A stretch of DNA of 32,000 nt from Haloquadratum walsbyi C23 (GCF_000237865.1 NC_017457.1:68259-100258), one strand, 5' to 3'. Counted from the stretch's first letter, positions 831-31,951 are shown. Notes: generated by a model from the letters alone, not told the origin. Numbers and translations: made by a program.

Positions 831-831
831 T

Positions 832-1104
832 ATGGGTAGTGTCATATCTAAAGGCTGGGTCAATCATCTCACTATGAAGTGTTGGGAATGGACTGTAGTA
901 GAGCGGGTAAGTCGGACAGTCAGGATGGAAGAGATCCGCGAAAACGACTACAATCTGAATATCGATTTATACGTCGATACGACCAAACCAGAGGAAGATA
1001 TTGACGTACAGGAGGAACTGGCGGAACTACGCGAGTTGCAGGCAGAACGAGACGAGATTGAAGCGAAGATGACCCAGCATATGGAGGCTCTGAATTATGA
1101 GTGA
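832..1104 (+). pseudogene. hsdM: 3' remnant of Type I methyltransferase subunit hsdM (only about the last 70 codons are HsdM-like)
   Basis: The ORF tail VERVSRTVRMEEIRENDYNLNIDLYVDTTKPEEDIDVQEELAELRELQAERDEIEAKM matches the canonical extreme C-terminus of HsdM (..EEI..NDYNLNI.RYV..). No AdoMet-binding or NPPF/Y motif is present. Its stop overlaps the next hsdS start (ATGAGTGA at 1097-1104), as at a genuine hsdM-hsdS junction. Confidence 0.7.
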
Positions 1105-2452: not shown

Positions 2453-5417
2453 TATCCCATCCGAGCAGGGCGTTGAACGCTCGTATCTCTCGTGGCTTGA
2501 CGGGTTAGGATGGGAAGTCCACGGACAAGATGGAAGTCGAGGAGCGAATGTCCTTGATGTAGAGTACGAACGTCGAAGCAATGAGGTTATTTACTGGAAT
2601 TTACTGGCTGAACAGCTCATCGTGATCAATGACTCCCTCACAGAGGATAATGTCGAGAAGTTCGTTTCCTCGCTCAGACGTGATCTTGACGCTGAGAACT
2701 TGATGGACGGGAATGAAGCGTTCTATGAGTTACTGACCAAGGGAAAGACATTCTCAGTCAAGCAGAATGGGAGTGCCAGCAGGACGGTCTATATTGACCT
2801 GATTGACTACGAGAACCCAGAGAACAATCGCTTCCACGCTGTTAATCAGTTCTCTGTCTCCCGTGAAACGACGATCCGTCCCGACGTGAACCTCCTTGTC
2901 AACGGGATTCCGCTGGTGACGATGGAACTCAAGAGTGTCGCACAGGACAACGACTGGCACAACGCTGTGAGCGACCTCCAAGCGTACGAAGATGATGTAC
3001 CTCGACTGTTCGTCCCGACGCTATTCAACGTCGCCGCCGATACGATGGAGTTCCGATACGGGGCAGTCGGAGCGTCCAAGGAGTTCTATGAGCCGTGGAA
3101 TGATGCTCCCGAGCAGTACACAGATGACGGCGACGCAAAGCAGGCGATACAGGCACTCTGTAACCCGCAGACGATTCTCGATATTCTCAAGAACTTCGTG
3201 TTTTACGAGCGACGAGCAGGTGGGAATGCCAAAATTATTCCACGGCATATGCAGTACTACGCTGTCAATCGGATGCTGGAGCGGGTTGACCGAGACGAAC
3301 ACGACCGAGGGCTCATCTGGCACACCCAAGGATCGGGCAAGTCATTCACGATGCTGTATGCGGCAGAGAATCTACTAGAGCGGGCTGTTGCTCGTAACCC
3401 GCAGGTGTTCATCATCGTCGATACGGACAAGCTGAATAGTCAAATGCGAGACCAACTGGCGAATCTCTCGCTGGGAGCGTGGACGGAAGCAGAGAGCATC
3501 GACCATCTACAGGAACTTATCGAACAGGGTCAGAGCGAGCTCATTCTTACGACCATCCAGAAGTTCCAAGATGTTGACCCAGACAGTCAGGGGAACGACG
3601 AAGTCATCGTGATGTCCGATGAGGCTCACCGATTTATGGAAGCTGACCTTGGGAGTCGATTGGATGCCGCACTGCCAAGCTGCACTCACTTCGGCTTTAC
3701 TGGTACGCCTGTCCGTGAGGGTGAACAGCACAAAGACCGCAACACCTTCCGTGAGTTTTCACCAGAGGGCGAAGATTATATCCACCGCTATTCGGTCAAA
3801 CAGGGGATTGACGACGAGCTGATTCTCCCTGTGTACTTCACGCTCCGCCACGAGATGGAGTGGCAGATTGATGAGTCGGGGCTTGATGAAGAGTTTGAAC
3901 GGCAGTTCCGCGGACTGAGTTCGGATGAGAAGCGGGAACTCATCCGTGACAACGTAACTGCGAGGATGTTGGCGGAGATTGAGCCACGAGTACAGAAAGC
4001 GGTTGAAGAAATCGACCAGCATTATGAGGAGTCTGTTTCTCCGAACAACTGGAAGGGAATGGTTGTCACCCCAAGCCGTCGGTCGGCAGCGATGTACGGT
4101 GAACGGCTCGTAGAACGGCGAGGTAAAGACGAGGTCGAGGTTCTATACACCTCGAACAAGGACGACCCAGACCTCATCCAGCAGTTCCATACGGACTCTG
4201 AGGAACGTGATTCGATAGTTAACGAGTTCAAAGACGAGGACAATCCAAAACTATTGATTGTCCACAATATGCTTCTGACGGGATTTGACGCTCCGATTCT
4301 GAAGACGATCTATCTTGACCGTAACCTGAAGAATCATAATCTGATGCAGGCAATCGCTCGAACGAACCGCCCTGCAAGTGGGAAGGAAAATGGTGAGATT
4401 GTCGATTTCCAAGGCGTCTTTGAGAATATCGACGAGGCTCTCGATTACGATACGGAGACGCAGTCGTACGCCGCTCGTGACAAAGATGAGCTGTTTGACG
4501 ACCTCGTTGACCAGTTGGAAACGGTGATAGATATTTTCGAGGGGATTCCGAAAACAGACACGCAGGAAGCCACATCGGACGCAGTTGAGCAAGTGCTGAC
4601 ACACCCGACTCGCCGTGAGTTCAAGCAGGGATTCCGTCGGCTTCAAGATCTGTATGAGGCGGTCGCACCTGACAGTCGACTCGTCGAGAAGGACATCGAG
4701 AGGCGGTACAAGTGGCTGAGTCGGATTCACGTTGCGTTCAGGCGGACAACTAGCGGTGAAGATGACCCTGAAGAAGATATGCGAGAGAAGACCCGAGAGA
4801 TAGTCAGTGAAAACGTCGCAATTGACACTGTGAAACGAGACTTTCCAACGTACAAACTCGGTGAGGACGTCTTAGAAGAAGTGGATGAGATAGATAATCC
4901 GTCTGTGAAAGCCTCCCAAATCGCCCACGCAACCCAGGAGCATCTCAACCCACGAGAAAACCAGAATCCTCGATATAAGCGACTTAGCGAGCGGGTGACT
5001 GATGTTGTTGAGCGATGGCAAGGTGGCGATATAGCCGACCCTGACGCAGTTGAGGCGTTACAATCAGTCGAAGAGGAGATTCTGGAGGTTGAGGAAGAAG
5101 CTGAAGAGCAGGGAATGACCGATAGTGAGTTTGCTATCTACACGCACCTTACCGAGGAAACGCCAGAAGCAATTGAGTCAGACGAGCAGGCAGAAGCCGT
5201 CGCTAACGAGATTATTGAGCAGTTCTACGACCGTGTTGATCACGGGTTTGCTGGGTGGCAAACGAACCAGCAGACGATTGCTGAGATTGAACGCATCTTA
5301 CTGGACGTGCTTGTGGTGGAGTATGATCTTGGAGACCTGATCGATGATGAGTTTGTGGACACGGTTCGAGAGTATCTGATACAGAACCACGAAGCGACAG
5401 TTGACCACTATGAGTGA
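2445..5417 (+). CDS. hsdR: Type I restriction enzyme R subunit HsdR (SF2 helicase-nuclease)
   Basis: 990 aa. N-terminal PD-(D/E)xK-like segment (PDVNLLVNGIPLVTMELK). Walker A HTQGSGKSFTM (GSGKS at 3330-3344). DEAH at 3618-3629 (VMSDEAHR). FGFTGTP motif III. LLTGFDAP and QAIARTNR motifs V/VI. Confidence 0.95.
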   Translation: MVSIPSEQGVERSYLSWLDGLGWEVHGQDGSRGANVLDVEYERRSNEVIYWNLLAEQLIVINDSLTEDNVEKFVSSLRRDLDAENLMDGNEAFYELLTKGKTFSVKQNGSASRTVYIDLIDYENPENNRFHAVNQFSVSRETTIRPDVNLLVNGIPLVTMELKSVAQDNDWHNAVSDLQAYEDDVPRLFVPTLFNVAADTMEFRYGAVGASKEFYEPWNDAPEQYTDDGDAKQAIQALCNPQTILDILKNFVFYERRAGGNAKIIPRHMQYYAVNRMLERVDRDEHDRGLIWHTQGSGKSFTMLYAAENLLERAVARNPQVFIIVDTDKLNSQMRDQLANLSLGAWTEAESIDHLQELIEQGQSELILTTIQKFQDVDPDSQGNDEVIVMSDEAHRFMEADLGSRLDAALPSCTHFGFTGTPVREGEQHKDRNTFREFSPEGEDYIHRYSVKQGIDDELILPVYFTLRHEMEWQIDESGLDEEFERQFRGLSSDEKRELIRDNVTARMLAEIEPRVQKAVEEIDQHYEESVSPNNWKGMVVTPSRRSAAMYGERLVERRGKDEVEVLYTSNKDDPDLIQQFHTDSEERDSIVNEFKDEDNPKLLIVHNMLLTGFDAPILKTIYLDRNLKNHNLMQAIARTNRPASGKENGEIVDFQGVFENIDEALDYDTETQSYAARDKDELFDDLVDQLETVIDIFEGIPKTDTQEATSDAVEQVLTHPTRREFKQGFRRLQDLYEAVAPDSRLVEKDIERRYKWLSRIHVAFRRTTSGEDDPEEDMREKTREIVSENVAIDTVKRDFPTYKLGEDVLEEVDEIDNPSVKASQIAHATQEHLNPRENQNPRYKRLSERVTDVVERWQGGDIADPDAVEALQSVEEEILEVEEEAEEQGMTDSEFAIYTHLTEETPEAIESDEQAEAVANEIIEQFYDRVDHGFAGWQTNQQTIAEIERILLDVLVVEYDLGDLIDDEFVDTVREYLIQNHEATVDHYE

Positions 5418-6132
5418 GGTACGATTACACGAGCTAGAATTGCTGGGTGAGAGCGTCGAGTACGAACTACGGCGGAGTGCAGAGGCGTCAGAGCCACGGA
5501 TTGACGTCGATATTCACGGGGTGAGGGTAGTCGTCCCAGAGACTGCTGATTTTCAGCCAACAGAGCTACTGAAACAGAATGCATCGTGGGTGCTGGAGAA
5601 ACAGCGAGTGTATCAGAAGTATCGTGAGGAAGCCCCTGAGCGGACGTTTGAGGCTGGCGAGAGATTTCCGTTCCTCGGAGAAGAACACAAGTTGGTGGTT
5701 GAATCTCGGCAGTCTCACGCTGTGTCAGACCGGACGATTCATCTGCGAGAGAGCGCTGTCGCACAGTCGTCACTCAAACAAGCACTACGGAATTTCTACC
5801 GAAGTCGGGCACGCAAACACTTCGTTGATCGTGCCGACCAGTATGCTTCTCAGATGGGTGTTGAGTATAAGCAGATTGAGATTCGGAATCAGCGGACAAG
5901 GTGGGGGAGTTGTTCAACGTCAGGAACACTCGGACTCAACTGGCGGTTGATGATGGCTTCGCCTAACGTTATCGACTACATCCTTGTCCACGAGTTAGCA
6001 CATCTCCGTGAGCCGAATCACACGCAAGCGTTCTGGGATTTTGTCGCAGAGTACGATCCTGACTACGTGGAACACGCCGAATGGCTTGAGGAAAACAGTA
6101 CGCAACTCATCTTTTCTCAAGCCGACCTATGA
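5410..6132 (+). CDS. DUF45/YgjP-like (M48-type) zinc metallohydrolase, translationally coupled to hsdR
   Basis: HELAHLREPNH zinc motif (HELAH at 5989-6003) preceded by RWGSCS, which is typical of the YgjP/DUF45 family. The ATG at 5410 overlaps the hsdR stop (ATGAGTGA). The ORF-track start at 5401 is a TTG and less likely. Confidence 0.85.
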   Translation: MSEVRLHELELLGESVEYELRRSAEASEPRIDVDIHGVRVVVPETADFQPTELLKQNASWVLEKQRVYQKYREEAPERTFEAGERFPFLGEEHKLVVESRQSHAVSDRTIHLRESAVAQSSLKQALRNFYRSRARKHFVDRADQYASQMGVEYKQIEIRNQRTRWGSCSTSGTLGLNWRLMMASPNVIDYILVHELAHLREPNHTQAFWDFVAEYDPDYVEHAEWLEENSTQLIFSQADL

Positions 6133-10200: not shown

Positions 10201-10208
10201 ACCGAGTG

Positions 10209-17895: not shown

Positions 17896-17953
17896 GTCAA
17901 GTGTGTCAAGTGAGTCGTTGATTTATATAACACACACACACCGTTTTTCACGG
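17896..17953. repeat. Left arm of a 58-nt origin-type inverted repeat (gtcaagtg units, tttatata, (ca)n, ccgtttttcacgg)
   Basis: By hand alignment, 52 of 58 positions match the reverse complement of 18241-18298. An additional gtcaagtga unit lies at 17887-17895. Confidence 0.85.
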
Positions 17954-18240: not shown

Positions 18241-18298
18241 CACTGAGAAACGGTGTGTGTGTGGTATATAAATGAACCACTCACTTGACACACTTGAC
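18241..18298. repeat. Right arm of the 58-nt origin-type inverted repeat (cactgagaaacgg-(tg)n-tatataaa-...cacttgac)
   Basis: It is the reverse complement of 17896-17953 with 6 mismatches. The cactgagaaacgg segment loosely resembles the archaeal ORB core (..CAGTGGAAAC..). Confidence 0.85.
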
Positions 18299-18986: not shown

Positions 18987-21860
18987 ATGAGTTCACAAAC
19001 ATCTCCAAGTATCCAGCCAGGTGCCGTAGTCAAGAATCGAAACCGACTATGGAGAGTTGATTCCGTTGATGGAGACGTTGTCACAGCGACTCCCATAGAC
19101 GGGAGCACTGCCGACAAGCATCGGTTTTATATTCCGGTCGAGGATATCAGAGAGGGCAGTCTGAATCCGCCAGATTCTGAGAAACTCGGGAATCCTGAGT
19201 TTCAGCGGCTACTAAATCGGTCATATCGGCTTTCGATGCTACACGGGACAGCTCCACTCGTAAGCCTCCAACGGTCACGGGTTATCCCAACCGAGTACCA
19301 GCTTACTCCAGTTGTAATGTCTTTGGATATGCCCCGTGTCCGAATGCTGCTGGCTGACGACGTCGGTCTAGGGAAAACCATTGAAGCAGGCCTCATCACC
19401 AGCGAACTGATGGCCCGCAACAAAGCGGATCGTATTCTCATAATTACGCCTGCGAATCTCCGAGACCAGTGGCGTGAAGCGTTTACCTACTTCTTCCACA
19501 TTGATGCGGATATTATCAGCCGCCGCCATCGAAAGGCGATGGAAAAGGAAATCCCACCAGGAACTAGTCCGTGGGAGCATTTTTCGAAACTCATTGTCAG
19601 TATCGACTACGCCAAACAAAATAGCGTTCGACACGAGATTCTGGATCAAGAGTGGGATCTCGTCATTATTGATGAGGCACACCAAGCGGCGAAACCGCAT
19701 GAATCCGGGGCAAACGAAACCGTCGATATGCAACGCTGGGACTTTGCGACCGATATCACCGACCACGCTGAACACTGTCTCCTCCTGACGGCTACGCCCC
19801 ACAACGGCTACACGGATTCGTTTGCGAGCTTGATTCGGATGCTTGACGTCGACGCAGTATCTGGTCCTCGACATGACCCTACCGTTCACCGAGATATCGC
19901 CCGAAAGCATGTTGTCCAACGACGGCGGGACGATGTCAAGCGATGGTTCTCTGACAGCGACGGTCAAAGTCCCTTCCCAAAGCGAGATCAAGACGAAGTA
20001 CGGGTTACGCCGACAGCATACGAGGAAGAGACATACGATGCCGTCCGAGAGTATGGAGAGCTGTTGATGTCCTCCGCACAACGGTCAAGCTCCAAGAGCC
20101 AGACGCTGGCTCGTTGGTCAGTCATCCACTTCCTGAAGCGAGCATTAAGTAGCCCCGAAGCGCTCCGCCGATCGATAAAAAACCGTCAGGAAAAGCTCGA
20201 AGGTCGGCTGGATGAACTTGACGAGGAGGATACCCAGACTGTAATCGAAGAGACAGCAGGAGTCTCCGAGTCGATGGCTCAGGCGAATGCACTTGACGAC
20301 GATCCTGGTGAAGAGTACAGTGAAGAGGAGGTCGGAGAACGGGTCGAGCGGGTCGTCACGGGTGATAAAGCCGCTATCGAACAGGAACTGGAGGTTCTCG
20401 AAGATGTTGCAGAAAAGGCGGAGCGGGTCACCAAAACCCGTGATGCAAAGTTACAGCGGCTTCTCGACGAAACTCTACCCCAGCGGTTCCAATACCCTCG
20501 TGTCATCATATTTACAAAGTACGTGGATACGCTGGAGTATCTCGAAGAGCAGATCAAGGATTCGCAGGGTGATGAGACCGAAGTCTTCACTCTCCACGGG
20601 TCTCTAAATGAGGCACAACGGAAGGAGCGGTTCAAAGAGTTTGAAGAATCTACACGGGGCGTTCTCATCGCCACTGACGTCATCAGCGAAGGGATGAACC
20701 TCCAACACGCCGCAAACCAAATTATTCACTACGAGCTGCCGTGGAACCCGAACAGATTGGAACAGCGGAACGGTCGAATCGACCGATATGGGCAGGAGAA
20801 CGACGAGGTCGTCATCCGGACGATGGTCGTCGAGGATCAGATGGACGTGGCTATTCTCGAAAAACTCGTCCAGAAAGCGAACAACATCAGGCAGGAGTAC
20901 GGGTTCTCACCACCGTACTTCGGCGACGACGAAGGGATCCTCGAACTGCTCAAAGACGAGGGAATCGACGCTGGCGTTCCACAGGCAACACTAGAAGAGT
21001 TCGGCGGCTCCGCACCAGCGGAGCGTGAGAGTGCGAGTGTCTTTGACGACCAGACACTTGACCGAATTAAATCCGAATCGTTCTACGGGCATACTGAAGT
21101 CGGCCTACAGGAGGTTCAAAAGCGTCAAGAAGAGACCCACCAGCGAATCGGCGGGCAGGGCACGTTAGAGCAGTTCGTCAAGAGTGGTCTGAACCTGTTC
21201 AATTGCTCGTACGAGATGAACGTCCAAGGGCACCTCAACATCGAGGTTACTGCTGATCGACTTCAATCACCGGACATCAAACGTGAGTACGAGGACGTGA
21301 CGTTCGATCCCAACGAGGCGTCCCAGTCATCGGATGCGGAGATGCTTGACATCGCCCATCCGCTCGTACAACGGCTCATCGAAGCCGTCAAAGAGACAGC
21401 GTTGACCGATGAGAACCGCTACGGGCGGACAGCAATACGGGGAACCGATGAGGTGAGGGAGCCGACAGCAGTGTATACAGCACTGGTTCGATACGTGGCA
21501 GACACCCAGCCCGATCCGACGATTATGGAGGAGTTGGTACAGGTCGGGTTGCCAATCTACGGGGACAAGCCACTTGAGCAAGATACCGTTGAGGCTTTAG
21601 AGGAGAGTGAAGCCAAACCGGTTCAGCGCACATCGATGGAGAAGGAAGACGAACTCAGAGCGGCACTCGGACACGGAGCGTTCGAACAGACGCTACAACG
21701 GCGAGCAGAACAGCGGCGGGACAAGATTGTCGAACAGCGGACCGAGATGCGAGCGGAGCTTGAGAAATCCGGAAGTGGAAGCTGGCTGTCCGGGATTGAT
21801 GACGTCGAGATTGCGAGCAAAGATCTGCTGACTGTCACCATCTATTATGGGAGCAACTAA
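18987..21860 (+). CDS. SNF2/RapA-family helicase (DrmD-like)
   Basis: 957 aa. Motif I LADDVGLGKT (19356-19379). Motif II IIDEAHQ (DEAH at 19671-19682). Motif III LLLTATPHNG. C-terminal lobe FTLHGSL..., ATDVISEGMNLQ, and motif VI WNPNRLEQRNGRIDRYGQ. Small N-terminal beta-rich domain (GAVVKNRNRLWRVDSVDGDVVTATPIDG). Confidence 0.92.
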   Translation: MSSQTSPSIQPGAVVKNRNRLWRVDSVDGDVVTATPIDGSTADKHRFYIPVEDIREGSLNPPDSEKLGNPEFQRLLNRSYRLSMLHGTAPLVSLQRSRVIPTEYQLTPVVMSLDMPRVRMLLADDVGLGKTIEAGLITSELMARNKADRILIITPANLRDQWREAFTYFFHIDADIISRRHRKAMEKEIPPGTSPWEHFSKLIVSIDYAKQNSVRHEILDQEWDLVIIDEAHQAAKPHESGANETVDMQRWDFATDITDHAEHCLLLTATPHNGYTDSFASLIRMLDVDAVSGPRHDPTVHRDIARKHVVQRRRDDVKRWFSDSDGQSPFPKRDQDEVRVTPTAYEEETYDAVREYGELLMSSAQRSSSKSQTLARWSVIHFLKRALSSPEALRRSIKNRQEKLEGRLDELDEEDTQTVIEETAGVSESMAQANALDDDPGEEYSEEEVGERVERVVTGDKAAIEQELEVLEDVAEKAERVTKTRDAKLQRLLDETLPQRFQYPRVIIFTKYVDTLEYLEEQIKDSQGDETEVFTLHGSLNEAQRKERFKEFEESTRGVLIATDVISEGMNLQHAANQIIHYELPWNPNRLEQRNGRIDRYGQENDEVVIRTMVVEDQMDVAILEKLVQKANNIRQEYGFSPPYFGDDEGILELLKDEGIDAGVPQATLEEFGGSAPAERESASVFDDQTLDRIKSESFYGHTEVGLQEVQKRQEETHQRIGGQGTLEQFVKSGLNLFNCSYEMNVQGHLNIEVTADRLQSPDIKREYEDVTFDPNEASQSSDAEMLDIAHPLVQRLIEAVKETALTDENRYGRTAIRGTDEVREPTAVYTALVRYVADTQPDPTIMEELVQVGLPIYGDKPLEQDTVEALEESEAKPVQRTSMEKEDELRAALGHGAFEQTLQRRAEQRRDKIVEQRTEMRAELEKSGSGSWLSGIDDVEIASKDLLTVTIYYGSN

Positions 21861-21862
21861 CG

Positions 21863-24800
21863 ATGAGTATCGATACACCCTCTACCGACGCTGAAATCGA
21901 ATCGAGTTCCGATACGCCACGAACCGGATCAACGACATTCATTAATACGAGCGGCGGTCTCCTCACCGAGGAACTGGTTGGCAAAGTCCGTCAACGTCAG
22001 TGCGGAGAGTCTGCCGTCCGACCGGAGACCTTTGCGTTACCGAACACGGAGCCGCCCGAAGAGGCGGACATCGAAGCAGAGATCGGGAATACGTGGAACA
22101 CGCTTCGGGAGCGATGGGACGAGCTGACTATGGACGAGACACTATTCCATATGGACGTCTCGGACGCTCGCAACAAGTGGATTCTCAAGCTATTCCGAAA
22201 CCTTGGCTTCGAGCCGGTCTTCCAGCGTGAGAATCTCGAAGCGGGCGGCATCGAGGCGAACCTCTCTCATAAGGGATGGCCGGACGGCGAGATCGAAAAC
22301 TATGGTGAACTGGAGGGGCGGACGGCTCCAATCATTCATACCGTTAAGCCGGAACAGAAGCTGGATCAAAAACCCGAAAATGCTCCTCGTGGAAGAAAAA
22401 GTCCACATGACACGCTCCAGGAGTTCCTAAATGCCAGCGACGAACATGACTGGGCTGTCGTAACAAACGGGCTGACGCTCCGAGTTCTTCGGGATTTCTA
22501 TCACACGTACACCCGTGGATACGTGGAGTTCGATCTGGAGAATATATTTACGACCCGGAATTACGGGGACTTCCGGGGACTCTACCGGCTCTGCCACGCT
22601 ACACGGTTCATCGATCCGATCGTAGCCGATGAAGAGGAGGATGATATTGAGACTCCTCTGGAGCAGCTCTACCAGGTCGCTCTGTCTACTGGGGTCAAGG
22701 TTGGTCAAGATCTCCAATCCAACGTCGTAAGCGCCATCGAGACGCTGGGGACCGGGCTACTCAACCAGGAGATTCGGGAGTTCCTCAAAGAAGGTGGAGA
22801 AGAGGAAGCCAAAGAGTACTATCAGGAGGTCCTTCTCTTGGTATATCGCCTGCTTTTCCTGATGTATGCAGAGCAGCGGGGGATGATGGCGTCACGTGAT
22901 AGCCTGTACACCAACGAGTATAGCATCACGAACCTCCGTAGAAAAGCCGAAAACCGTCGAAGCGGGAGTGACCGAAATACTGATCTTTGGCACGGCTTAC
23001 AGTCCACGTTCCGTCTCGTCGAGAAGGGTGACGACGAACTCGGCGTCCCTTGTTACAATGGAATGCTCTTCGACTCGAACCGGTTTGAATGGGTGTCCGA
23101 AGCCGAGTGTTTCAACGATGATCTCTTGGATGCAATTGAGGATCTCACCCTCATTGAGCACGAGGGCACTCGCCAACGAATCTCGTACGCCGACCTCGGT
23201 GTTGAGGAGATTGGGTCTGTCTACGAGAGTCTGCTCGAGTTTACACCGAGGCTTGCATCTGAAGTAATTGAATTGGAAGACAGAACGATTACTCGTGGTA
23301 AGTTCTATCTCGACGACCGGGGGACCGAGCGAAAAGAGACCGGGAGCTACTATACTGATCCGGGATTAGTTCAAGAACTTATTCAGAGCTCGCTGGAACC
23401 CGTCGTTGAAGATCGTATGGAAAACGCTGTCACGACTCCGGAACAGGAAGAAGCCCTCCTCGACATCTCTGTCTGCGATCCAGCAAGCGGAAGTGGTGCG
23501 TTCCTGATCGCCGCCAACAATTTCTTAGCACAGCGACTCGCTCGCATTCGATCTGACAGTGACTATCCGCCTGGAGACAAGATTCGTGAGGCACGCAGAG
23601 ATGTCCTCCAGCACTGTATCTATGCAGTCGACCTCAATCCAATGGCCGTCGAATTGGCAAAGGTCAGTCTCTGGATAAACTCTGCTGTAGAAGACAAGCC
23701 GCTAAACTTTCTTGATCACCGTATCAAACAAGGAAATTCGCTTGTTGGGACAAATAGAGATCTAATTAATCGAGGCGTTCCTGCTGATGCCTATGAGACA
23801 TCGAAGGGTCGTGACTGGCACATTGGCAATGAAATAAGGAAACGTGTCCGTCAAGAAAATAGCGAACTGAATGATAATAACCAACAGATTCGGCTTGATA
23901 CTCAGTGGGATGACCGTCAGGAAGATTATGTAAGTCTTGCAGAACAGTTGGATCAATTAGAGGAATCTGAGGTCAAGAATATAAATAAGAAACAAAAAAT
24001 CTACAATGATCTCCGTGAGAGTGAAAATTTCCAGCGGGAGAAACTTGCCCATGACGTATGGACGGCAGCATTTTATTGGCCGCTCGATGGTTCTGCAGAA
24101 GAATATCCAACGCCGAATATAATCGAACAGATTCGTCGAAATCCGCCGACACCATCCAACAGTTCTCTTTCTGAACTAACTGGGTTACAGGCTGTGCGTG
24201 AACGTGCAACTCAACTCGCAGAGAAGGAGTCGTTCTTCCATTGGAAGCTCGAATTTCCAGAGGTATATGCAGCTGGTGGATTTGATTGTATCATCGGCAA
24301 CCCTCCCTGGGAGATCGTAGAATTTGAAGAAAGAGAATTCTTTGCCGTCCAGGCACCTCATATCGCAGATGCAAGCACTCAGAGCGAGAGGAGAGAACTC
24401 ATTTCAGAATTGGAAAAAACGGATCCGGAGCTCTATTCTGAGTACCAGTCTGCAGTGAACCGTATGGAAAGTCGTGTCCGGTTCCTGAAAGAGAGTGGGC
24501 GATACGAACTTACAGGGACTGGCCATGTCAATACATACTCAACTTTTACTGAACACGCTTTATCGAACATCAACAACTATGGACGGTGTGGAATCATCGT
24601 CCCACAGGGTATTGCAACAGATTCAAACACTCAAGAATTCTTCCAGCATATCGTAGAAAAGCGTCGGCTTATCTCCCTCTTAGGCTTCGAAAACCGAAGT
24701 CAATTATTCCCAGATGTAGACGGCCGGTTTAATTTTTGTCTACTGACTCTGAGCGGTCGAAAAGAGACGCAAGAAAAGTTTGAGCTTGCATTTTATTTGA

Positions 24801-25915
24801 CCGAAATTGATCAATTACAAGACGAACAACGTCGGTTCAATTTGTCCAAACGAGACATCAAAACGATTAATCCTAACACAAAGACTTGCCCAACATTCCA
24901 AAACAGAGAAGATGCCAATCTTACCCTCAATATCCACAGAAGAACAGATATATTAAAAAAAGAAGCGGATGGATCCGGAAATCAGTGGGATATTTCGTTA
25001 GAGAGGATGTTCCACATGTCAAATGACTCTGGACTTTTTGAAACCTCCTCTACTCTTCAACAAGACGGTTTTGAATTGTCTGGGAATATTTTCGTTAAAG
25101 ATGATTTGAAGTATTTGCCGGTGTATGAGGCAAAATATATTCATCAGCATGATCACAGATTTGCCACTTATGAGGGGATAGAAAACGCTCCAGATGAAAA
25201 ACCACGAAAGCTATCGCCGGAAAAAAAAGATGTGGAAAATAAGCGAGTTATCCCTCGTTATTGGATAAAAGAAGACGAATACAAATCTCAAGAATACGAA
25301 GATTGGCATCTCTTGCTGAGAGCTATTACAAACGCCACAAATGAACGAACAGTAATTGCTTCACTTGCCCCTTCAACACCAACTGTCAACAGCGTCAACC
25401 ATGTCTTGGGAGTTTCCGCACCGGATGGACTAATTCTATCTTCATGCTTGAATTCTTATGTTCTGGACTTTGTTGCCCGTCAGAAAGTTGGAGGTACTAA
25501 CCTGAGCCAGTTCATAATAAAGCAACTACCAGTACCTACACCAGAGAAAGCCAATCAAATACAACTAGATAATAACCCAATACGGAAGGCAATCTTAGAA
25601 CGTGCGGAAAAGCTAATATACACAGGATCTGATCTTTCTTCTATCGGATCTGAGCTAAATAACGACTCTGATCCTTACCAATTTACTGAGCCAGATGGGA
25701 AGAAGCGAGAAGAGGTCAGGTATGAATTAGAAGCGTTAATTTGCCATCTCTATGGGATTCATTCGGAGGAATTCAAACCTCTATTTGACTCTTTTAAGCA
25801 GATCAAACAACGTGATCAGCAAAAGTATGGCTACTATCGCACCCGTGATGAAATTAAACGCAGATTTGATGACTTAGCACCCAGAATCACGTATGAATCA
25901 AAGTCGGAACAATAG
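21863..25915 (+). CDS. Large gamma-class N6-adenine DNA methyltransferase (Eco57I/Type IIG-like, DrmMI/PglX-like architecture)
   Basis: 1350 aa. The ATG is 2 nt after the SNF2 stop. AdoMet motif I VCDPASGSGAFL (23477-23506). Catalytic motif IV IIGNPPWE (NPPW at 24299-24310). N-terminal HsdR_N-like fold (..APIIHTVKPEQ..HDWAVVTNGLTLRVLRD). The long C-terminal half is presumably a target-recognition region. Confidence 0.92.
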   Translation: MSIDTPSTDAEIESSSDTPRTGSTTFINTSGGLLTEELVGKVRQRQCGESAVRPETFALPNTEPPEEADIEAEIGNTWNTLRERWDELTMDETLFHMDVSDARNKWILKLFRNLGFEPVFQRENLEAGGIEANLSHKGWPDGEIENYGELEGRTAPIIHTVKPEQKLDQKPENAPRGRKSPHDTLQEFLNASDEHDWAVVTNGLTLRVLRDFYHTYTRGYVEFDLENIFTTRNYGDFRGLYRLCHATRFIDPIVADEEEDDIETPLEQLYQVALSTGVKVGQDLQSNVVSAIETLGTGLLNQEIREFLKEGGEEEAKEYYQEVLLLVYRLLFLMYAEQRGMMASRDSLYTNEYSITNLRRKAENRRSGSDRNTDLWHGLQSTFRLVEKGDDELGVPCYNGMLFDSNRFEWVSEAECFNDDLLDAIEDLTLIEHEGTRQRISYADLGVEEIGSVYESLLEFTPRLASEVIELEDRTITRGKFYLDDRGTERKETGSYYTDPGLVQELIQSSLEPVVEDRMENAVTTPEQEEALLDISVCDPASGSGAFLIAANNFLAQRLARIRSDSDYPPGDKIREARRDVLQHCIYAVDLNPMAVELAKVSLWINSAVEDKPLNFLDHRIKQGNSLVGTNRDLINRGVPADAYETSKGRDWHIGNEIRKRVRQENSELNDNNQQIRLDTQWDDRQEDYVSLAEQLDQLEESEVKNINKKQKIYNDLRESENFQREKLAHDVWTAAFYWPLDGSAEEYPTPNIIEQIRRNPPTPSNSSLSELTGLQAVRERATQLAEKESFFHWKLEFPEVYAAGGFDCIIGNPPWEIVEFEEREFFAVQAPHIADASTQSERRELISELEKTDPELYSEYQSAVNRMESRVRFLKESGRYELTGTGHVNTYSTFTEHALSNINNYGRCGIIVPQGIATDSNTQEFFQHIVEKRRLISLLGFENRSQLFPDVDGRFNFCLLTLSGRKETQEKFELAFYLTEIDQLQDEQRRFNLSKRDIKTINPNTKTCPTFQNREDANLTLNIHRRTDILKKEADGSGNQWDISLERMFHMSNDSGLFETSSTLQQDGFELSGNIFVKDDLKYLPVYEAKYIHQHDHRFATYEGIENAPDEKPRKLSPEKKDVENKRVIPRYWIKEDEYKSQEYEDWHLLLRAITNATNERTVIASLAPSTPTVNSVNHVLGVSAPDGLILSSCLNSYVLDFVARQKVGGTNLSQFIIKQLPVPTPEKANQIQLDNNPIRKAILERAEKLIYTGSDLSSIGSELNNDSDPYQFTEPDGKKREEVRYELEALICHLYGIHSEEFKPLFDSFKQIKQRDQQKYGYYRTRDEIKRRFDDLAPRITYESKSEQ

Positions 25916-25947
25916 GTTCATGTCTGAATTAATTTATTATGCTCGTC

Positions 25948-25954
25948 TTTTTTT
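25948..25954 (+). terminator. T7 tract, a candidate archaeal intrinsic terminator after the methylase gene
   Basis: The ctcgtctttttttcg run of 7 T lies about 33 nt downstream of the stop at 25915. Archaeal termination commonly uses oligo-T tracts. Not tested. Confidence 0.3.
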
Positions 25955-26233
25955 CGTGAACAGAATATGTCAAAATAAATGAGTCAGACTGGTTGGATAA
26001 AAATCCAAATCTGACTGAATACCGGATTAGGTAGGAAAATCACCCCTGGAATAGGGACTCAATTTCGTTGAAAAATTCTGTAAATACGGTTTTGATTATA
26101 TTTGAATCATTTAATCCAGTATGTAGTATTTTTCCGAAGAAAATATAGTAAACGTTCAGAATCAGGGTTCGGAGAGTAATAGAGACAAGGCATAACCTTC
26201 GGATCATAACTGGCTTTCTGGTCATCGAAATAA

Positions 26234-26578
26234 TTATTCAATTGATATACAGTCCCTATCGAACTTATCTAAGTACACCAGACTTCTGAATTCAAATTCA
26301 AAATCGGCAACATTGTCAATAGTAATGAAACTATTTATGCTCTTGATTAACTCGTCATGGGTTAACCAGAGTTCTTGTTCACCGCTCGCTCCAGCGATGT
26401 CGGACTTTCCTGATCCGAAAAGTAACACTGTCGGACTATCTGGAGTGAATTCTAATTTGAACGTATGATGGTATTCTGGTTGATATTGTTGCTCGTGAGC
26501 GTCTAGATCTCCATGTAGTACAGCTAAATCTAACTCCTAATTAATATCGCCCCTACCAACCGGACTAACGAGCTCCAT
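26234..26578 (-). pseudogene. Antisense ORF with an in-frame TAG (codon 14), divergent from the helicase gene; decayed gene of unknown function
   Basis: The ATG at 26578 gives MELVSPVGRGDIN, then a TAG at 26537-26539. The same frame continues ELDLAVLHGDLDAHEQQYQPEYHHTFKLEFTPDSPTVLLFGSGKSD...CISIE, reaching the track ORF 26234..26428. The product is acidic and protein-like, but no domain is recognised. Confidence 0.3.
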
Positions 26579-26644
26579 GTCCTACCTATCATACTCAGTT
26601 CTCTTATGAAAAAACGTTTACAGCTTCCCATTAATAAGCAGAAT

Positions 26645-29600
26645 ATGTCATCTCGTCTCAATCCCTTTGACGCCCTCGATAACGTCCAATCCTCCTATCG
26701 ATCCTACGTCGAGACGTTTCAAAACGTCGACGATGAGACGATCAACGCTTGGATTGAGAACCGCATCGAGACGGGAAAGGTACTGTGGAAAGAACCGTTT
26801 GTTCAATTGAATCAACGCTTCAAGTACGGCGACACCCTGGAAGAGTTCGTTACGGACAATAAGCTCCACGAGAGTATTCTGGATGTATTCACCGGTGTCG
26901 GCGGCGATCCCATTGAGCCGTACAAACATCAGACCGAGGCAATTCAGTCTATCCAAGCAGGAAACAATACCATCGTTTCCACAGGGACAGGATCGGGGAA
27001 GAGCTTCGCCTTTGGGATTCCGATCGTCAGTCACTGTCTCGAAGCTAAAGAGCGAGGCGAGGACGGGATCAAAGCGGTCATTATCTACCCGATGAACGCT
27101 TTGGCGAACTCCCAGTACGAGGACTTCGCAGAGCGACTTGACGGGACAGGTCTCCGGCTGGGACTTTACACGGGTGACACACCGCACAACCCTGACGAGG
27201 CACCAGAGTTCCTCCGGCAGTTCGGTCGTGAAGAGGCGTTTGACTCCGAGATCGTCTCTCGGGAAGAGATGCAGAACGACCCGCCGGACATCCTGATGAC
27301 GAACTACGTCATGCTTGACCTCATCCTTACCCGACATGAAGACAAGAAGCTCTTCCCAGAGATGCACGAGGGAGCCTTACAGCATCTGGTACTAGACGAG
27401 ATCCACACCTACACCGGTCATCAGGGAGCCGACGTCGCCGCACTGGTCCGCCGGCTGAAGCAGCACACCGACGCTGGAAAGGAACTCGTCTGCGTCGGTA
27501 CTTCTGCGACGGTTCAGAGCGATGAGGGGATCAACGCCAACGACGAGATAGCCGAATTCACTGGGAAGATCTTTGGTGAGGAGGTCGACGTCAACAACGT
27601 CGTTCGGGAGTTCCATTACCCATTACCCCTCTCTGACGACGAACCGCTTCCTGACGACATCGAAGTCACCGAAGAGGACATCGCAACCTTCGACGGGAGT
27701 CTCGAAGCCGCACAAGACCTCACCGAGAAACTCCTCGACCGGGATCTGATGCCAGCTGAGACAACCGATGCGTCAGCACTCGGGAATGCGCTGGAGAATC
27801 ACCCAACGATCAAGTTCCTTGATGAAGAGCTTAGCTCCCAGAGCCAGCAGATCTTCGCCGGTGAGGATGACAAAAGCGATGACGGGAAGGATCTCGTCAG
27901 TAGCTATCAGGAACAGTACCGACCCGATGCATCTCGGTACGACATCGAGCAGGAACTACAGGCAGCCCTGCTAATGGGGACGGTTGGGACGACCGAGATA
28001 CAGGGCGAGGAACAGCCGATCTTCATCCCGAAACTCCACACCTTCTTCAGTCAGGGAAGTGGTCTCGTCTCCTGTCTCACCGAGGAGTCCCTCGATGACG
28101 ACGAACCACACCTGAGTGACGCCGGCGACATCGAGTGTCGCACGTGCGCACAAGAACACGACCGTTCTCGGACTGCCTACCCGCTCTCGTTCTGTCGGGG
28201 ATGCGGTCAGGAGTACTACACCACGGTTGTCGATCAAGAGAACACCGTCACACAAGGTGCGTTGAGTACCTTCGTAGACACGGAAGAGGACGAAGAGGAG
28301 GCGTACCTAATGCGGGGCGATTGGGATCGAGAAACGGCTCCACTCCCCGATGAGTGGCTAAATGAGAATGGGCAGCTTCGAGATACCTACATCGAGGCTG
28401 AACCCCGACCGGCTATTTACTGCCCCGATTGCGACCAACTCACTCCTGGACGAGTAGAACAGGGGCAGCTCGAATGTGGATGCTTCGCTGCGCAGGGGCT
28501 TGAGGTGATGCGGGTCAACCAGCCGTTCCTGTTCTGTCCGAACTGTGGCGTCCACTACACTCGCCGGGTCAAGAACGAGTTCAACAAGCTGTTTACCTTC
28601 GGGACTGTCGGCCGCTCGACAGCGACGGACATTCTCATCGGAAACACGATGCGGAACCTCCCCGATGACCAGCAGAAGACCATCGCCTTCTCTGACAACC
28701 GACAGGATACTGCATTGCAGGCGGCTCACCTCAATAACCTCTACCAGCGGATTCGATTCCGACGCTCGCTGTACCATACCCTTGTAGAGGGCGACGATGT
28801 AAGTCTCACGACGCTCGGAAACGATATCTTCGACCTCCTTGATGACAAGGAAGCCCTTCCGCCAGCCATAGATACAGGGATGTTCGGACCGTCGGCTGAG
28901 GATCGTCAGAACTACAGCGACTATCTGCTGTTCAACGTCATTCTCGAACTCGGTCGTGAACAGCAACGCACCCAGCAGAGTCTCAAAGACGTCGGACTGG
29001 TCAATGTCGAGTACGAGAACCTCGATAAGCTGGCGGATGTAGACGATGTTTGGGACTCGATCCCCGTACTTTCGAATGCAGATCCGACGGTGCGAGAGGA
29101 GTATGTTCACGGCTTCTTGGACATCTTCCGCCGGAGCATTGCAATAGACCACGATAGCACCACGAACTTCGCCGACTTCAAGCGAAACGTCATCAACCAG
29201 CTCGACGAAGAGGTTCATTTCCACGGGCAGGAGTTCTTCAATTTCCCAGTCGGGTACAGTGATACGGCAAGCACTAACGGAAGGCACCGGGTTCGCCGAC
29301 TTACACATCCTCGCTCTCGACACGTCCGTTGGACATCCCGTGCGTTAGACGTCGACACCGATACTGCGAAGTCAATTATTAACAGCGTCGTTGAGCTCAT
29401 CAGCGACGACGAAATACTCAAGCTGCTGACGCAGGAGTCGCTGAAGTACACTGGGAAAGTATATATGTTGAATCACAGTGCTGTTCGAGTCACGCATGCC
29501 AATCCCGAGGACGTACGGGTCTGTCCAAAATGTGGAACACCGACGACTCGGAATGAACTTGATGTCTGTCTGAATTACAGCTGTGATTCGATTATACCCG

Positions 29601-31951
29601 AGGAAACAAATCTTGAGTCGTCCTACTTCTATGACCTCTATACCGAGTCGCTTGATGACGCCGTTGATATCATCGCCGGCGAACACAGCGGTCAGGTTGA
29701 GAACGAAAGACGGAAACAGTTAGAGTCAGATTTCAGGGAGGGCGAAAAGGTGAATACTATTGTCTCAACGCCGACGATGGAACTCGGAATCGACATTGGT
29801 GATCTCTCGAATGTCTATATGCGGAACGTCCCACCAGACCCGAGTAACTACGCTCAGCGTTCCGGGCGGGCTGGACGGCAAAATCAGCCGTCGCTGGTCA
29901 CGACATTCTGTGGTCGTGGGTTCGGGCGTGGTTCTCACGACCAGTACTTCTACCAACATCCAGAACGGATCATCGCAGGAGAAATCAGCCCACCTACGTT
30001 CCTACTCAACAACCAGGATCTGATTGAGTCGCATATCAACGCCCTCGTTCTCGAACAGATTGAGCTCAAGTTCCAGAGCAAGCCCCGACAGATGCTGGTC
30101 ATCGAGGAAGGAAGCGACTACGAGATTATGCCCGATTATCGGGTAGACCTGGAGAATGCCGTCAAGAACAACCGACAGAAGATCATTCAGGCGGTGAGAC
30201 AAGCGTTTGTCCGTGAGCGTGAACAGGATACCGTCGGGGAGTGGTTCACCGATGGCTTCATCGAGCGCCAAGTGGACGACTTTGTCGAGAATCTCGATGA
30301 AGCCTTCGACCCGTGGCGTCGTGAGTACACCCGCTTGAGCCGTGAATTGCGGCGATTGAATCAACTCCTCGCCACCGAAGGAGGGTCATATCAAGATAGG
30401 ATCGAGCGCAACGCCATCGAAGACCGGCTTGAGGATATGCGTTCAGGGAACAAACGCTTCTATACTTATCAGTACCTCCGCTCACAAGGGTTTCTGCCGA
30501 ATTACGGATTCCCAAGACAGAGCACGACGCTAACATTCACTTCCCGAGAGGACGATATTCAGCGAGATCAGACACGGGCTATCAGCGAATTCGCTCCTGG
30601 AAATCACGTTTACTACGCCGGAGAGCGGTTTGCTGTGCGGTATGCCCGTCCTCGGACGAAAGACTCAGAGCCAGTTACCCGACATCTCCGTGTCTGCCCG
30701 GAGTGCGAGACCATCCTGATGGGAGAAGATGCTCAGGAGTCCGCAGCATGCCCCTCGTGTGAAACCTCGTTCGATGGAACTCATCCAAATCCGAATGCGA
30801 TGGAGCTCCCGAACCAACACGCTCAGCCAGAGGAGAATATCACCAGCGATGAGGAGGAGCGTCGTCGGCGGGGATACGAGATTAATAGCTATTACGAACG
30901 ATCTGATCCTCGACAATTTAAATTAGAGGGTAACGGGATCGAGGCTAGAGTAACATATGAAGCGAGTGCGAATATCGTTTTGATTAATAGTGGGCTCCGA
31001 GATTCTGATGAAGATGATCTCGACGGGTTTGCACTTTGTATGGAGTGTAACAAATGGCTGAACAGCAGGGATCAGATCGAGAGTCACGTTGACGAGGACG
31101 ATCCGGATTGCTATGCTAATGCATCAGAAGAAGCAGTCAAACATGAAATCGAGCTGTTCTCTGAAGGGCAACACGACACAGTGACGCTGACCACACCACT
31201 CCCCGAGGGGCTTGAACCTGAGCAAGCTGATGAATTTTATCGGACTCTTAAAGAAACCATCTATCAGGGTATTCTAGTTGCGTTTGACCTGGATGAGGAG
31301 GAAATTGACACCTTTGTCAAACCAGCAATGGGAGAGTATGGACAGGTCAGTATTGTGATCTACGAAACTAGTGAGGGAGGAGCAGGCGTGCTTCGCTCAC
31401 TAATGGATGAGGCACGGTTTAAAAAAGCAGTTCGGGAAGCACAGACTGTTGTTCACAAGGATACTGATGATGATGGTTGCGAGCGTGTGTGCTATGATTG
31501 TCTTTTGTCTTTCTACAACCAGCCAGAGCATGAGTTCCTCGATAGAACACTTGTTGACTCATGGTTAGATAATCTCGAAAATGCGACTCTGACTGAACTA
31601 AGCGAAACAAACAGGACTGAGATGACTGAAGAGAGATTTAATGAGCTTCTCAAAGCCTGTGAATCCAGTTTTGAGCGTGAGGTCCTTCACACTATTCGAG
31701 ATCAAGAGTTTGAATTTCCAGACCAGGCTCAAAAAACCGTCTACGACGGCGGTGAGCCAGTAGCAAAGCCCGACTTCTTTTACAAACGAACTGGGCGCTC
31801 TGTGGCTGTATTCGTCGACGGTCCTGCTCATCAGAAGGATTACGTCATACAGGATGACGAGCATAAACGAAGACGGCTGAAGAAGATGGGATATCGAGTT
31901 GTGGCAGTTACTGATATTGGGCAAGTCGAGGAGATGTGGGAAAACATCTAA
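26645..31951 (+). CDS. Giant SF2 DEAD/DEAH helicase with multiple Zn-ribbon insertions, a DUF1998-type C-terminal module and a terminal Vsr/DUF559-like nuclease fold (DrmA-DrmB-like fusion, COG1205-like)
   Basis: Motif I VSTGTGSGKSFAF (26978-27004). Motif II LVLDEIHTY (DEIH at 27395-27406). Motif III GTSAT. IAFSDNRQDTA. Motif V STPTMELGIDIGDL. Motif VI QRSGRAGR. CxxC pairs are present (CRTC..CRGC; CPDC; CPNC; CPKC). The ATG at 26645 (MSSRLNPFD) is preferred over 26606. Confidence 0.92.
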   Translation: MSSRLNPFDALDNVQSSYRSYVETFQNVDDETINAWIENRIETGKVLWKEPFVQLNQRFKYGDTLEEFVTDNKLHESILDVFTGVGGDPIEPYKHQTEAIQSIQAGNNTIVSTGTGSGKSFAFGIPIVSHCLEAKERGEDGIKAVIIYPMNALANSQYEDFAERLDGTGLRLGLYTGDTPHNPDEAPEFLRQFGREEAFDSEIVSREEMQNDPPDILMTNYVMLDLILTRHEDKKLFPEMHEGALQHLVLDEIHTYTGHQGADVAALVRRLKQHTDAGKELVCVGTSATVQSDEGINANDEIAEFTGKIFGEEVDVNNVVREFHYPLPLSDDEPLPDDIEVTEEDIATFDGSLEAAQDLTEKLLDRDLMPAETTDASALGNALENHPTIKFLDEELSSQSQQIFAGEDDKSDDGKDLVSSYQEQYRPDASRYDIEQELQAALLMGTVGTTEIQGEEQPIFIPKLHTFFSQGSGLVSCLTEESLDDDEPHLSDAGDIECRTCAQEHDRSRTAYPLSFCRGCGQEYYTTVVDQENTVTQGALSTFVDTEEDEEEAYLMRGDWDRETAPLPDEWLNENGQLRDTYIEAEPRPAIYCPDCDQLTPGRVEQGQLECGCFAAQGLEVMRVNQPFLFCPNCGVHYTRRVKNEFNKLFTFGTVGRSTATDILIGNTMRNLPDDQQKTIAFSDNRQDTALQAAHLNNLYQRIRFRRSLYHTLVEGDDVSLTTLGNDIFDLLDDKEALPPAIDTGMFGPSAEDRQNYSDYLLFNVILELGREQQRTQQSLKDVGLVNVEYENLDKLADVDDVWDSIPVLSNADPTVREEYVHGFLDIFRRSIAIDHDSTTNFADFKRNVINQLDEEVHFHGQEFFNFPVGYSDTASTNGRHRVRRLTHPRSRHVRWTSRALDVDTDTAKSIINSVVELISDDEILKLLTQESLKYTGKVYMLNHSAVRVTHANPEDVRVCPKCGTPTTRNELDVCLNYSCDSIIPEETNLESSYFYDLYTESLDDAVDIIAGEHSGQVENERRKQLESDFREGEKVNTIVSTPTMELGIDIGDLSNVYMRNVPPDPSNYAQRSGRAGRQNQPSLVTTFCGRGFGRGSHDQYFYQHPERIIAGEISPPTFLLNNQDLIESHINALVLEQIELKFQSKPRQMLVIEEGSDYEIMPDYRVDLENAVKNNRQKIIQAVRQAFVREREQDTVGEWFTDGFIERQVDDFVENLDEAFDPWRREYTRLSRELRRLNQLLATEGGSYQDRIERNAIEDRLEDMRSGNKRFYTYQYLRSQGFLPNYGFPRQSTTLTFTSREDDIQRDQTRAISEFAPGNHVYYAGERFAVRYARPRTKDSEPVTRHLRVCPECETILMGEDAQESAACPSCETSFDGTHPNPNAMELPNQHAQPEENITSDEEERRRRGYEINSYYERSDPRQFKLEGNGIEARVTYEASANIVLINSGLRDSDEDDLDGFALCMECNKWLNSRDQIESHVDEDDPDCYANASEEAVKHEIELFSEGQHDTVTLTTPLPEGLEPEQADEFYRTLKETIYQGILVAFDLDEEEIDTFVKPAMGEYGQVSIVIYETSEGGAGVLRSLMDEARFKKAVREAQTVVHKDTDDDGCERVCYDCLLSFYNQPEHEFLDRTLVDSWLDNLENATLTELSETNRTEMTEERFNELLKACESSFEREVLHTIRDQEFEFPDQAQKTVYDGGEPVAKPDFFYKRTGRSVAVFVDGPAHQKDYVIQDDEHKRRRLKKMGYRVVAVTDIGQVEEMWENI
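30477..31531 (+). other. DUF1998-like (MrfA/DrmB-type Zn-binding) region within the helicase ORF
   Basis: YQYLRSQGFLPNYGFP, then CPECETIL...CPSCE (from 30695), CMECNKW, and the terminal cluster CERVCYDCLLSFYNQPEH (31478-31531). This matches the C..C..CL..Y.N...H signature I associate with DUF1998. Confidence 0.65.
31673..31948 (+). other. C-terminal Vsr/DUF559-like PD-(D/E)xK-fold domain of the helicase ORF
   Basis: EREVLHTIRDQEFEFPDQ...AKPDFFYKRTGRSVAVFVDGPAHQKDYVIQDDEHKRRRLKKMGYRVVAV follows the E..l...f..Q...PDF....l.vE.DG..H....D..R...L...G..V pattern. The Glu before DG is replaced (VFVDG). Confidence 0.5.

Follow-up and report, generated by a model that had tools for sequence, protein, structure and literature searches.

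The 32,000-nucleotide stretch of the Haloquadratum walsbyi C23 genome analyzed here (NC_017457.1:68259-100258; hereafter the window) carries three large genes, armA, armB, and armC, that very probably form an intact ARMADA type I anti-virus or anti-plasmid system, arranged in the order typical of archaea and gained horizontally by a haloarchaeon as a three-gene unit. ARMADA, described by Bell et al. (bioRxiv, September 2025; PMC12458937), joins a BrxHII/RapA-like ArmA and a PglX-like ArmB to a YprA-like ArmC that ends in a Vsr nuclease; type I occurs in archaea, and the BrxHII-PglX-YprA order is found in many archaea and cyanobacteria. The locus encodes the same three proteins, with the same ArmC architecture and the archaeal gene order, and we assign it to type I because Table S1 of that paper gives this label to full-length homologues of ArmC. 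The data below establish three genes with their domains and intact motifs, the place of the helicase in the ARMADA type I clade, the conservation of the gene order, and the transfer of the three genes together. An earlier note on this DNA had described a DISARM class 1-like system of uncharacterized architecture. The first part of that description stands insofar as the three genes are related to DISARM and include a fused DUF1998 helicase, while membership of class 1 fails; the second is overtaken by the description of ARMADA type I, with haloarchaeal members in Table S1 (Bell et al. 2025). The classification of what appeared to be an uncharacterized archaeal DISARM variant is settled in this way, and the locus adds a member to ARMADA type I, already described for haloarchaea, rather than a new system. 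Two of its features go beyond the text of Bell et al. (PMC12458937): a variable 3' half of armB, whose product is at most 50% identical there to the relatives sampled, and a TBP-like gene between armB and armC, present here as a pseudogene.

The three genes are co-directional, and open reading frame (ORF) scanning and motif inspection show the catalytic motifs of all three to be intact. The first, armA (18987..21860, + strand), encodes a 957-residue BrxHII/RapA-like Snf2-family helicase; armB (21863..25915, +) follows after a 2-nt gap and encodes a 1350-residue PglX/DrmMI-like N6-adenine DNA methyltransferase; and armC (26645..31951, +) encodes a 1768-residue YprA-family SF2 helicase fused to a nuclease. 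The large same-strand genes, the 2-nt gap, and the 1350-residue NPPW methylase had all been read correctly in the earlier note. The longest ORF for armC (26606-31951, +) would give 1781 residues; we place the start at the ATG at 26645, giving 1768, because homologues begin with MATRLNPFDAL and the upstream ATG at 26606 is ACG in the orthologous locus L038. All three proteins are acidic, with isoelectric points of 4.5-4.8 and an Asp plus Glu content of 18-19%. Together with the TBP and orc1/cdc6 genes in the window and the closest relatives of the three proteins, which are all from Halobacteria, this bears out the haloarchaeal host that had been proposed.

ArmA matches the Pfam families SNF2-rel_dom (7e-14) and Helicase_C (7e-23), with a weak match to RapA_C, and carries the Walker A motif GLGKT at residue 127 and DEAH at residue 229; by sequence, its nearest solved structure is RapA (3e-34). 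ArmB matches Eco57I (1.6e-22), N6_Mtase (3e-10), and MmeI_Mtase, with an S-adenosylmethionine (SAM) motif, DPASGSG, at residue 539 and the catalytic NPPW at residue 813. Among the PADLOC models, ArmA is matched best by DrmD (1.5e-133), with matches also to BrxHII (4.5e-93) and DpdE (3.3e-82), and ArmB best by DrmMI (9.4e-97), along with type IIG models. No NCBIfam model passes its cut-off for ArmA, ArmB, or ArmC. Compared with BREX, ArmB is PglX-like and ArmA is BrxHII-like; PglZ, BrxC, BrxA, BrxB, and BrxL were not seen among the scanned ORFs, and the NCBIfam BREX PglX models match ArmB weakly, far under their cut-offs.

Profiles for DrmD, DrmMI, and DUF1998 all match the locus, and on these grounds it could be read as a variant of DISARM class 1 (DrmD, DrmMI, DrmA, DrmB, DrmC) in which DrmA and DrmB are fused and the PLD protein DrmC has been swapped for a Vsr-like domain. 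Both indeed combine an N6-adenine methyltransferase and an Snf2 helicase with a YprA-family helicase module that bears DUF1998, and ARMADA is described as sharing both partner proteins and a YprA-like helicase with DISARM (PMC12458937). In DISARM, however, the helicase and DUF1998 are separate proteins accompanied by the PLD protein, whereas here they are fused, the nuclease is of the PD-(D/E)xK kind, and the helicase falls with those of Druantia and ARMADA. The NCBIfam model DISARM_DrmD gives ArmA 470 bits, short of its cut-off of 610, and, in line with the earlier note's remark that no PLD gene is visible, we found no PLD domain in the scanned window ORFs or downstream in relatives. With the helicase comparisons given below, which count against it as well, we regard a DISARM class 1 variant as very unlikely.

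The ArmC helicase and its probable nuclease domain

ArmC is built, in order, of RecA1, a long Cys-rich insertion, RecA2, a DUF1998 module, and a C-terminal PD-(D/E)xK domain. Its helicase core matches DEAD (2e-24) and Helicase_C (2.6e-13) and contains the motifs GSGKS116, DEIH251, and QRSGRAGR1071. The DUF1998/MZB (MrfA zinc-binding) domain, at 31253..31504 (+), matches PF09369 with an E-value of 6.9e-8 and 33.5 bits against a cut-off of 24.2, in agreement with the SF2 helicase of roughly 1770 residues carrying DUF1998 that had been called from the sequence. The match covers residues 1550-1633 of the 1781-residue ORF, equivalent to 1537-1620 from the 26645 start, and the candidate ligands of the MZB domain are Cys 1465, 1468, 1489, 1612, 1616, and 1619.

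The seven best PADLOC matches of ArmC are all DruE models (up to 4.5e-124), compared with 3.9e-34 for DpdJ and 4e-14 for DrmA, the last over the Helicase_C region only. When the C-terminal 669 residues are considered, DruE models alone match, and no DrmB model does. By sequence, the nearest solved structures are 9tu7 (5e-53) and 9wae (9e-34), both helicases of about 2000 residues which, going by size and name, we take to be DruE. MrfA/YprA (6znp, 1e-22) comes next, and there is no DrmA chain among the PDB sequence matches. ArmC does not group with the housekeeping repair helicases MrfA or Lhr.

These same matches raise another reading, that of a Druantia-type system centered on DruE with unusual partners. 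Like DruE of Druantia types I-III, ArmC is a large YprA-family helicase with a DUF1998 domain and zinc modules, and ARMADA helicases as a group are closest to Druantia helicases, within the YprA family clades (PMC12458937). The partner genes differ, though: no DruA-D, DruM/F/G, or DruH gene accompanies armC, and its partners are of BREX and DISARM type. The C-terminus of ArmC, moreover, is Vsr-like and apparently active, unlike the C-terminal PLD pair of Druantia III or the inactivated Vsr domain of Druantia I and II (PMC12458937), and full-length homologues have been published as ARMADA type I. A Druantia-type system is for these reasons extremely improbable.

The placement of ArmC in the ARMADA type I clade rests on identity to proteins listed in Table S1 of PMC12458937. 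From end to end, ArmC shares 62% identity with SDR05900.1 from Natronobacterium texcoconense (P0016), and it is 42-46% identical to the Salinibacter ruber proteins MCS3612547.1 (P0040) and MCS3830719.1 (P0033) and to a Methanosaeta PtaU1.Bin060 protein (P0109, equated with the listed protein by source name). All four are entered there as 'ARMADA Type I helicase', and the same table holds type I helicases from Haloquadratum walsbyi, Natronomonas pharaonis, Halorhabdus utahensis, and Halorientalis regularis.

According to Bell et al., the ARMADA/Druantia lineage is united by a derived feature, namely BrxA-like, beta-barrel zinc-module, and MarR-like elements inserted between RecA1 and RecA2 (PMC12458937). 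In ArmC, the corresponding insertion contains Cys clusters (28136..29587, +; Cys 498/501/517/520, 593/596/611/613/631/634, and 960/963/975/980) that give weak zinc-ribbon hits in Pfam and are predicted to be zinc-binding modules. Their pattern fits what would be expected of the beta-barrel and MarR-associated zinc modules of ARMADA and Druantia helicases (PMC12458937). A single CxxC...CxxC cluster (30695..30763, +; Cys 1351/1354/1369/1372) lies between RecA2 and DUF1998. Type I helicases have one zinc module inserted in the OB region, and type II and Druantia helicases have two (PMC12458937); as a match of pattern only, the lone cluster at residues 1351-1372 fits type I.

The last ~110 residues of ArmC (31628..31948, +) make up a putative Vsr/DUF559-like PD-(D/E)xK nuclease domain. 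The region shows good conservation in an alignment of 24 homologues, with six of its residues (E1677, D1710, D1725, H1729, D1738, and R1742) invariant. The closest Pfam families are MTES_1575 (E = 9e-4) and DUF559 (E = 0.086), both under their cut-offs, and a profile search of PDB sequences returns I-Bth0305I (3r3p) as the best match at E = 0.15. An hhalign comparison with one MTES_1575 domain aligns the motifs at E = 0.007, with a reported probability of just 5%. The AlphaFold2 model of the domain has a pLDDT of 85, and a Foldseek search of the PDB lists 50 matches with E-values of 0.025-0.17 and TM-scores of 0.24-0.49, none below 0.001 in E-value. The matches that we recognized among them (cap-snatching endonucleases, R2 retrotransposon proteins, Hjc, TnsA, and Bax1) are all PD-(D/E)xK nucleases or proteins with a domain of that kind. 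A PD-(D/E)xK fold is likely for this region; the Vsr-like identity that the earlier note had given it is at most moderately supported. The equivalent domain of type I ArmC is labeled 'active? Vsr' in PMC12458937.

Type II, validated experimentally with the armABCD genes of E. coli, has ArmA, ArmB, and ArmC homologous to those described here and in the same order. It also has an essential armD, whose product joins a GajB-like helicase to a RelE-like domain, along with extra EEP and Vsr domains on ArmC, and it is reportedly absent from archaea (PMC12458937). The present ArmC has one nuclease domain and ends about 25 residues past R1742, with no EEP or second Vsr domain. This single domain, the one OB-region Cys cluster, and the lack of an armD-like gene in relatives fit type I and not type II.

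Conservation, transfer, and variation of the operon

Co-occurrence of the three genes in related genomes had been singled out as a check, and they stand together, with the order armA-armB-armC kept, in each of the 22 relatives, drawn from genomes and metagenomes, whose sequence reaches far enough upstream. Compared with copies in Halorussus, Halobacterium, Natronoarchaeum, and Halorientalis, ArmA is 92-93% and ArmC 87-92% identical. The DNA similarity runs from ~18.97 kb, within ~20 nt of the armA start, to ~31.95 kb, at the armC stop, and the flanks are unrelated. As the shared DNA is limited to the operon and ArmA and ArmC are about 90% identical across genera, we conclude that the operon moves between genera as a unit. 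A megablast search of the 18-32 kb region against plasmids gave just one match, of 287 nt at 77% identity.

The genes downstream of armC vary among relatives. They are DUF192 and ribosomal protein genes in L001, genes for RNase H-like and Prim-Pol proteins in L003, a DUF7845 gene in L004, a DUF2254 gene followed by an apparent other system in L032, and genes for a HEAT-repeat protein and one weakly similar to NucS_C in L047, a locus with 92% identity that has the last 49 nt of the window in common. In none of these five loci was a PLD, UvrD/GajB-like (armD), or Que/Dpd gene seen downstream of armC. This bears on whether the operon could belong to a BRIGADE system that extends partly beyond the window. 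BRIGADE is a Dpd/ARMADA hybrid, reported only from halophilic archaea, that combines a 7-deazaguanine biosynthesis cluster and two YprA helicases with a separate PLD or PD-(D/E)xK nuclease. The haloarchaeal host, the ARMADA-like character of BRIGADE helicases (PMC12458937), and the DpdJ (3.9e-34, ArmC) and DpdE (3.3e-82, ArmA) matches are what such a reading would lead one to expect. Yet no 7-deazaguanine biosynthesis or PLD gene was detected upstream (15 window ORFs compared with Pfam, of which 5 have no match), none of the BRIGADE genes occurs in the Pfam-annotated flanks of relatives, no second YprA helicase was found, and the nuclease is fused to ArmC as in ARMADA, whereas the BRIGADE nuclease is usually a separate neighboring gene (PMC12458937). 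We therefore give BRIGADE next to no chance, and the ARMADA type I reading is retained.

Within the operon, the variation is concentrated in the 3' half of armB (23800..25915, +), which encodes residues ~650-1350, including NPPW and the presumed target-recognition region, and has a GC content of 0.36-0.48. Against the near-identical operons L003, L005, L006, and L011, residues 1-600 of ArmB are mostly 80-98% identical, residues 601-650 are 74-78% identical, and identity falls to 16-60% further on. The C-terminal 600 residues are at most 50% identical to each of the 24 relatives compared, unlike the remainder of the operon, which is ~90% identical to its closest relatives. At the DNA level, similarity to relatives breaks off inside armB at ~23.7-24.3 kb, and GC drops from ~0.55 to ~0.40 across 23.6-26.6 kb. 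The armB gene is thus a mosaic that, from these comparisons, looks like the product of specificity-module exchange between operons. Among E. coli ARMADA II islands, armB is likewise the variable gene (mBio 2026 paper).

The 730-nt spacer between armB and armC contains a TBP-like pseudogene on the opposite strand (26050..26578, -) that had gone unmentioned in the earlier note. It was identified by tblastn and by alignment to L038. With the TBP gene that L004 has in this slot, it shares 47% identity over 109 residues (E 5e-26, tblastn), with an in-frame stop, and its nucleotide sequence is 89% identical to that of the intact gene which L038 carries here. In the alignment to L038, the frame is interrupted by a TAG nonsense codon and shifted by deletions of 5, 1, and 1 nt, and a further 3 nt are deleted without a shift. 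Of 28 haloarchaeal loci, 14 have a TBP-like gene between armB and armC, among them L032 (8446-8991), L006 (9394-9957), L004 (8659-9798), L011 (8575-9561), L036-L038, L046, L048, L054, and L055. They lie on either strand and are of several sequence types, and each copy scanned against Pfam exceeds the PF00352 cut-off. In N. texcoconense, the TBP gene is packed tightly into the operon, with an overlap at the armB stop and just 9 nt between its end and armC. The flanks of these haloarchaeal loci contain only two further TBP hits. No PADLOC model matches the slot TBP-like proteins, and in relatives that are not halophiles the slot is without TBP, holding a 249-residue hydrophobic, possibly membrane, ORF in L057 and an unrelated ORF in L013.

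In the text of the ARMADA paper, TBP is mentioned only for TALON and TOTE, conflict systems in which TBP-fold proteins accompany an ARMADA-like YprA helicase (PMC12458937); haloarchaeal ARMADA, in turn, often has TBP beside armC. TALON differs in lacking ArmA and ArmB, in having a TPR-CSD protein, a NERD nuclease, and a helicase that ends in an inactive RNase H domain, and in being reported mainly from Chloroflexota. It is conceivable, though we hold it doubtful, that haloarchaeal ARMADA I carries a hypervariable cassette made up of the ArmB specificity half and an optional TBP gene, with the TBP-fold protein a true accessory that serves either as a DNA-bending or sensing partner or as a regulator of armC. 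If so, the accessory would tie ARMADA mechanistically to TALON and TOTE, and the decayed gene described here would provide a natural minus-TBP variant for comparison.

Several relatives show irregularities of their own. In Salinigranum marinum (L004, 2159-8662), an insertion sequence of the DDE_Tnp_1 family splits armB. In L003 (4296-5885), the called armA product is 529 residues long, yet tblastn matches full-length ArmA there. In Halobacterium yunchengense, the ARMADA operon, including its TBP gene, is present on two scaffolds (L006 and L008) with identical match coordinates and identities, reflecting either a duplicated element or an assembly repeat. The ArmC-like helicase of S. ruber (L034, 9001-14193) is itself listed as an ARMADA Type I helicase in PMC12458937, and its neighbors are GmrSD, SbcCD, and a pair of large SF1 helicases that carry DUF559/MTES_1575 domains. 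The Methanothrix helicase (L033, 7972-14298) is a relative of the listed Methanosaeta protein; it is preceded by a 342-residue ORF that resembles only the C-terminus of ArmB, with a 979-residue PDDEXK_1 protein further upstream.

A number of points weigh against the operon being a complete and working ARMADA type I system. The 730-nt gap with a dead gene on the opposite strand makes co-transcription of armC with armB uncertain, and armC needs a promoter of its own. Both S. ruber L034 and Methanothrix L033 have ArmC-like genes with no armA or complete armB within 9 kb, and membership of the helicase clade alone is no guarantee of a three-gene system. Of the BrxA-like, MarR-like, and OB folds typical of the clade, just the ~700-residue insertion and the CxxC clusters are seen, and the scores behind the Vsr-type assignment of the ArmC C-terminus are weak. 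The window stops 49 nt past armC, so that downstream genes are judged from relatives. Finally, the literature we searched contains no experiment on any type I or archaeal ARMADA, and the function is extrapolated by analogy from type II, whose essential fourth gene, armD, is missing here, a source of real uncertainty.

Some of these points could equally mean that the locus is a decaying or inactive relic, or that armC encodes an autonomous repair-type helicase beside an orphan or type IIG-like methyltransferase. The spacer pseudogene, the decayed relatives (L004 with its split armB and L003 with its 529-residue call), and the armC-like genes of S. ruber and Methanothrix that stand without armA and a complete armB would be expected in that case. 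On the other hand, all three ORFs are full length with their catalytic motifs intact, none of the 22 relatives departs from the gene order, identity of ~90% between genera points to a unit that is maintained and was transferred recently, and the neighborhood resembles a defense island or integrated element. We consider it very improbable that the locus is a relic or a chance association, and an intact ARMADA type I operon remains our preferred reading.

A possible mode of action

Work on E. coli type II, Druantia, and MrfA suggests, by analogy, a function in defense, a part for methylation, a substrate, and an outcome that is non-abortive, and on this basis the three proteins may divide the labor as follows. 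ArmB would mark host DNA as an N6-adenine methyltransferase, with its variable C-terminal half setting the motif that is recognized. Like PglX in BREX, it is probably needed for restriction itself as well as for modification, since an NPPW mutant of the E. coli type II system loses protection. ArmA, a RapA/BrxHII-like Snf2 ATPase, would remodel DNA or translocate on it. ArmC would be the effector, loading onto single-stranded parts of unmodified invader DNA, such as replication intermediates and ends, translocating along it, and cutting it with the C-terminal Vsr-like PD-(D/E)xK nuclease. The invader would be cleared and the cell not killed. We propose non-killing clearance because of viability assays on type II, and single-stranded DNA loading because of reports on DruE, which is described there as a helicase-nuclease acting on intermediates that contain single-stranded DNA.

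The type II system of E. coli protects against 13 of 80 phages, requires all of its genes, and leaves infected cells viable. Protection is abolished by Walker mutations in ArmA and ArmC, by mutation of the ArmD Walker A motif, and by mutation of the ArmB NPPW motif, and is only partly reduced by mutations in the ArmD Walker B motif or the ArmB SAM motif. The O-island 172 defense island of enterohaemorrhagic E. coli (EHEC) holds three systems, of which ARMADA II is the strongest (mBio 2026 paper). The H. walsbyi copy is intact, compact, and without a fourth gene, and the nearly identical operons found in several genera are told apart mostly by the ArmB specificity half and by whether they have a TBP-like gene. 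They form a comparative panel that could address how ARMADA reads its motif and whether TBP-fold proteins play a part in archaeal defense.

The surrounding window

The neighborhood of the operon looks like a defense island or an integrated element. At its left end is a type I restriction-modification remnant or partial system (171..6132, +), identified from the Pfam families Methylase_S, HSDR_N, SWI2_SNF2, T1RH-like_C, and YgjP-like. It comprises hsdS pieces at 171-830 (219 residues, probably a fragment) and 1097-2452, hsdR at 2445-5417, and a YgjP-like metallopeptidase gene at 5401-6132; no hsdM lies within the window. The earlier note had placed such a system about 13 kb away, and the hsdS, hsdR, and YgjP-like genes are indeed found 13.6 kb upstream of armA. 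Directly after the hsdR and YgjP-like genes is an intact 184-residue TBP paralogue (6130-6681, -), whose N-terminus, by eye, resembles the TBP in the ARMADA operon of Halobacterium yunchengense (L006); it may belong to a family tied to defense islands. A 382-residue ORF (6865-8013, -) with HSDR_N and MmeI_N-like nuclease N-terminal domains follows.

Nearer to the operon, orc1/cdc6 (16634-17839, -) matches Cdc6_lid, Cdc6_C, and AAA in Pfam. The AT-rich spacer beside it (GC 0.41) contains a 55-nt inverted repeat with arms at 17896-17950 and 18244-18298 that are 93% complementary, as well as short tandem TGTGTCAAG-like repeats. This gene and its repeat region, just upstream of armA, are probably the replication origin of an integrated element. 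There is no tRNA gene in the window, and so no tRNA integration site was identified.

The region from 8000 to 15500 has a low GC content (0.41-0.46) and contains ORFs of 100-300 residues without a Pfam match (9727-10263, 10309-10833, 12363-13262, 13686-14246, and 14322-14636). Pentapeptide-repeat proteins can mimic DNA, and one of 142 residues is encoded at 15583-16011 (+; Pfam 1.5e-46).

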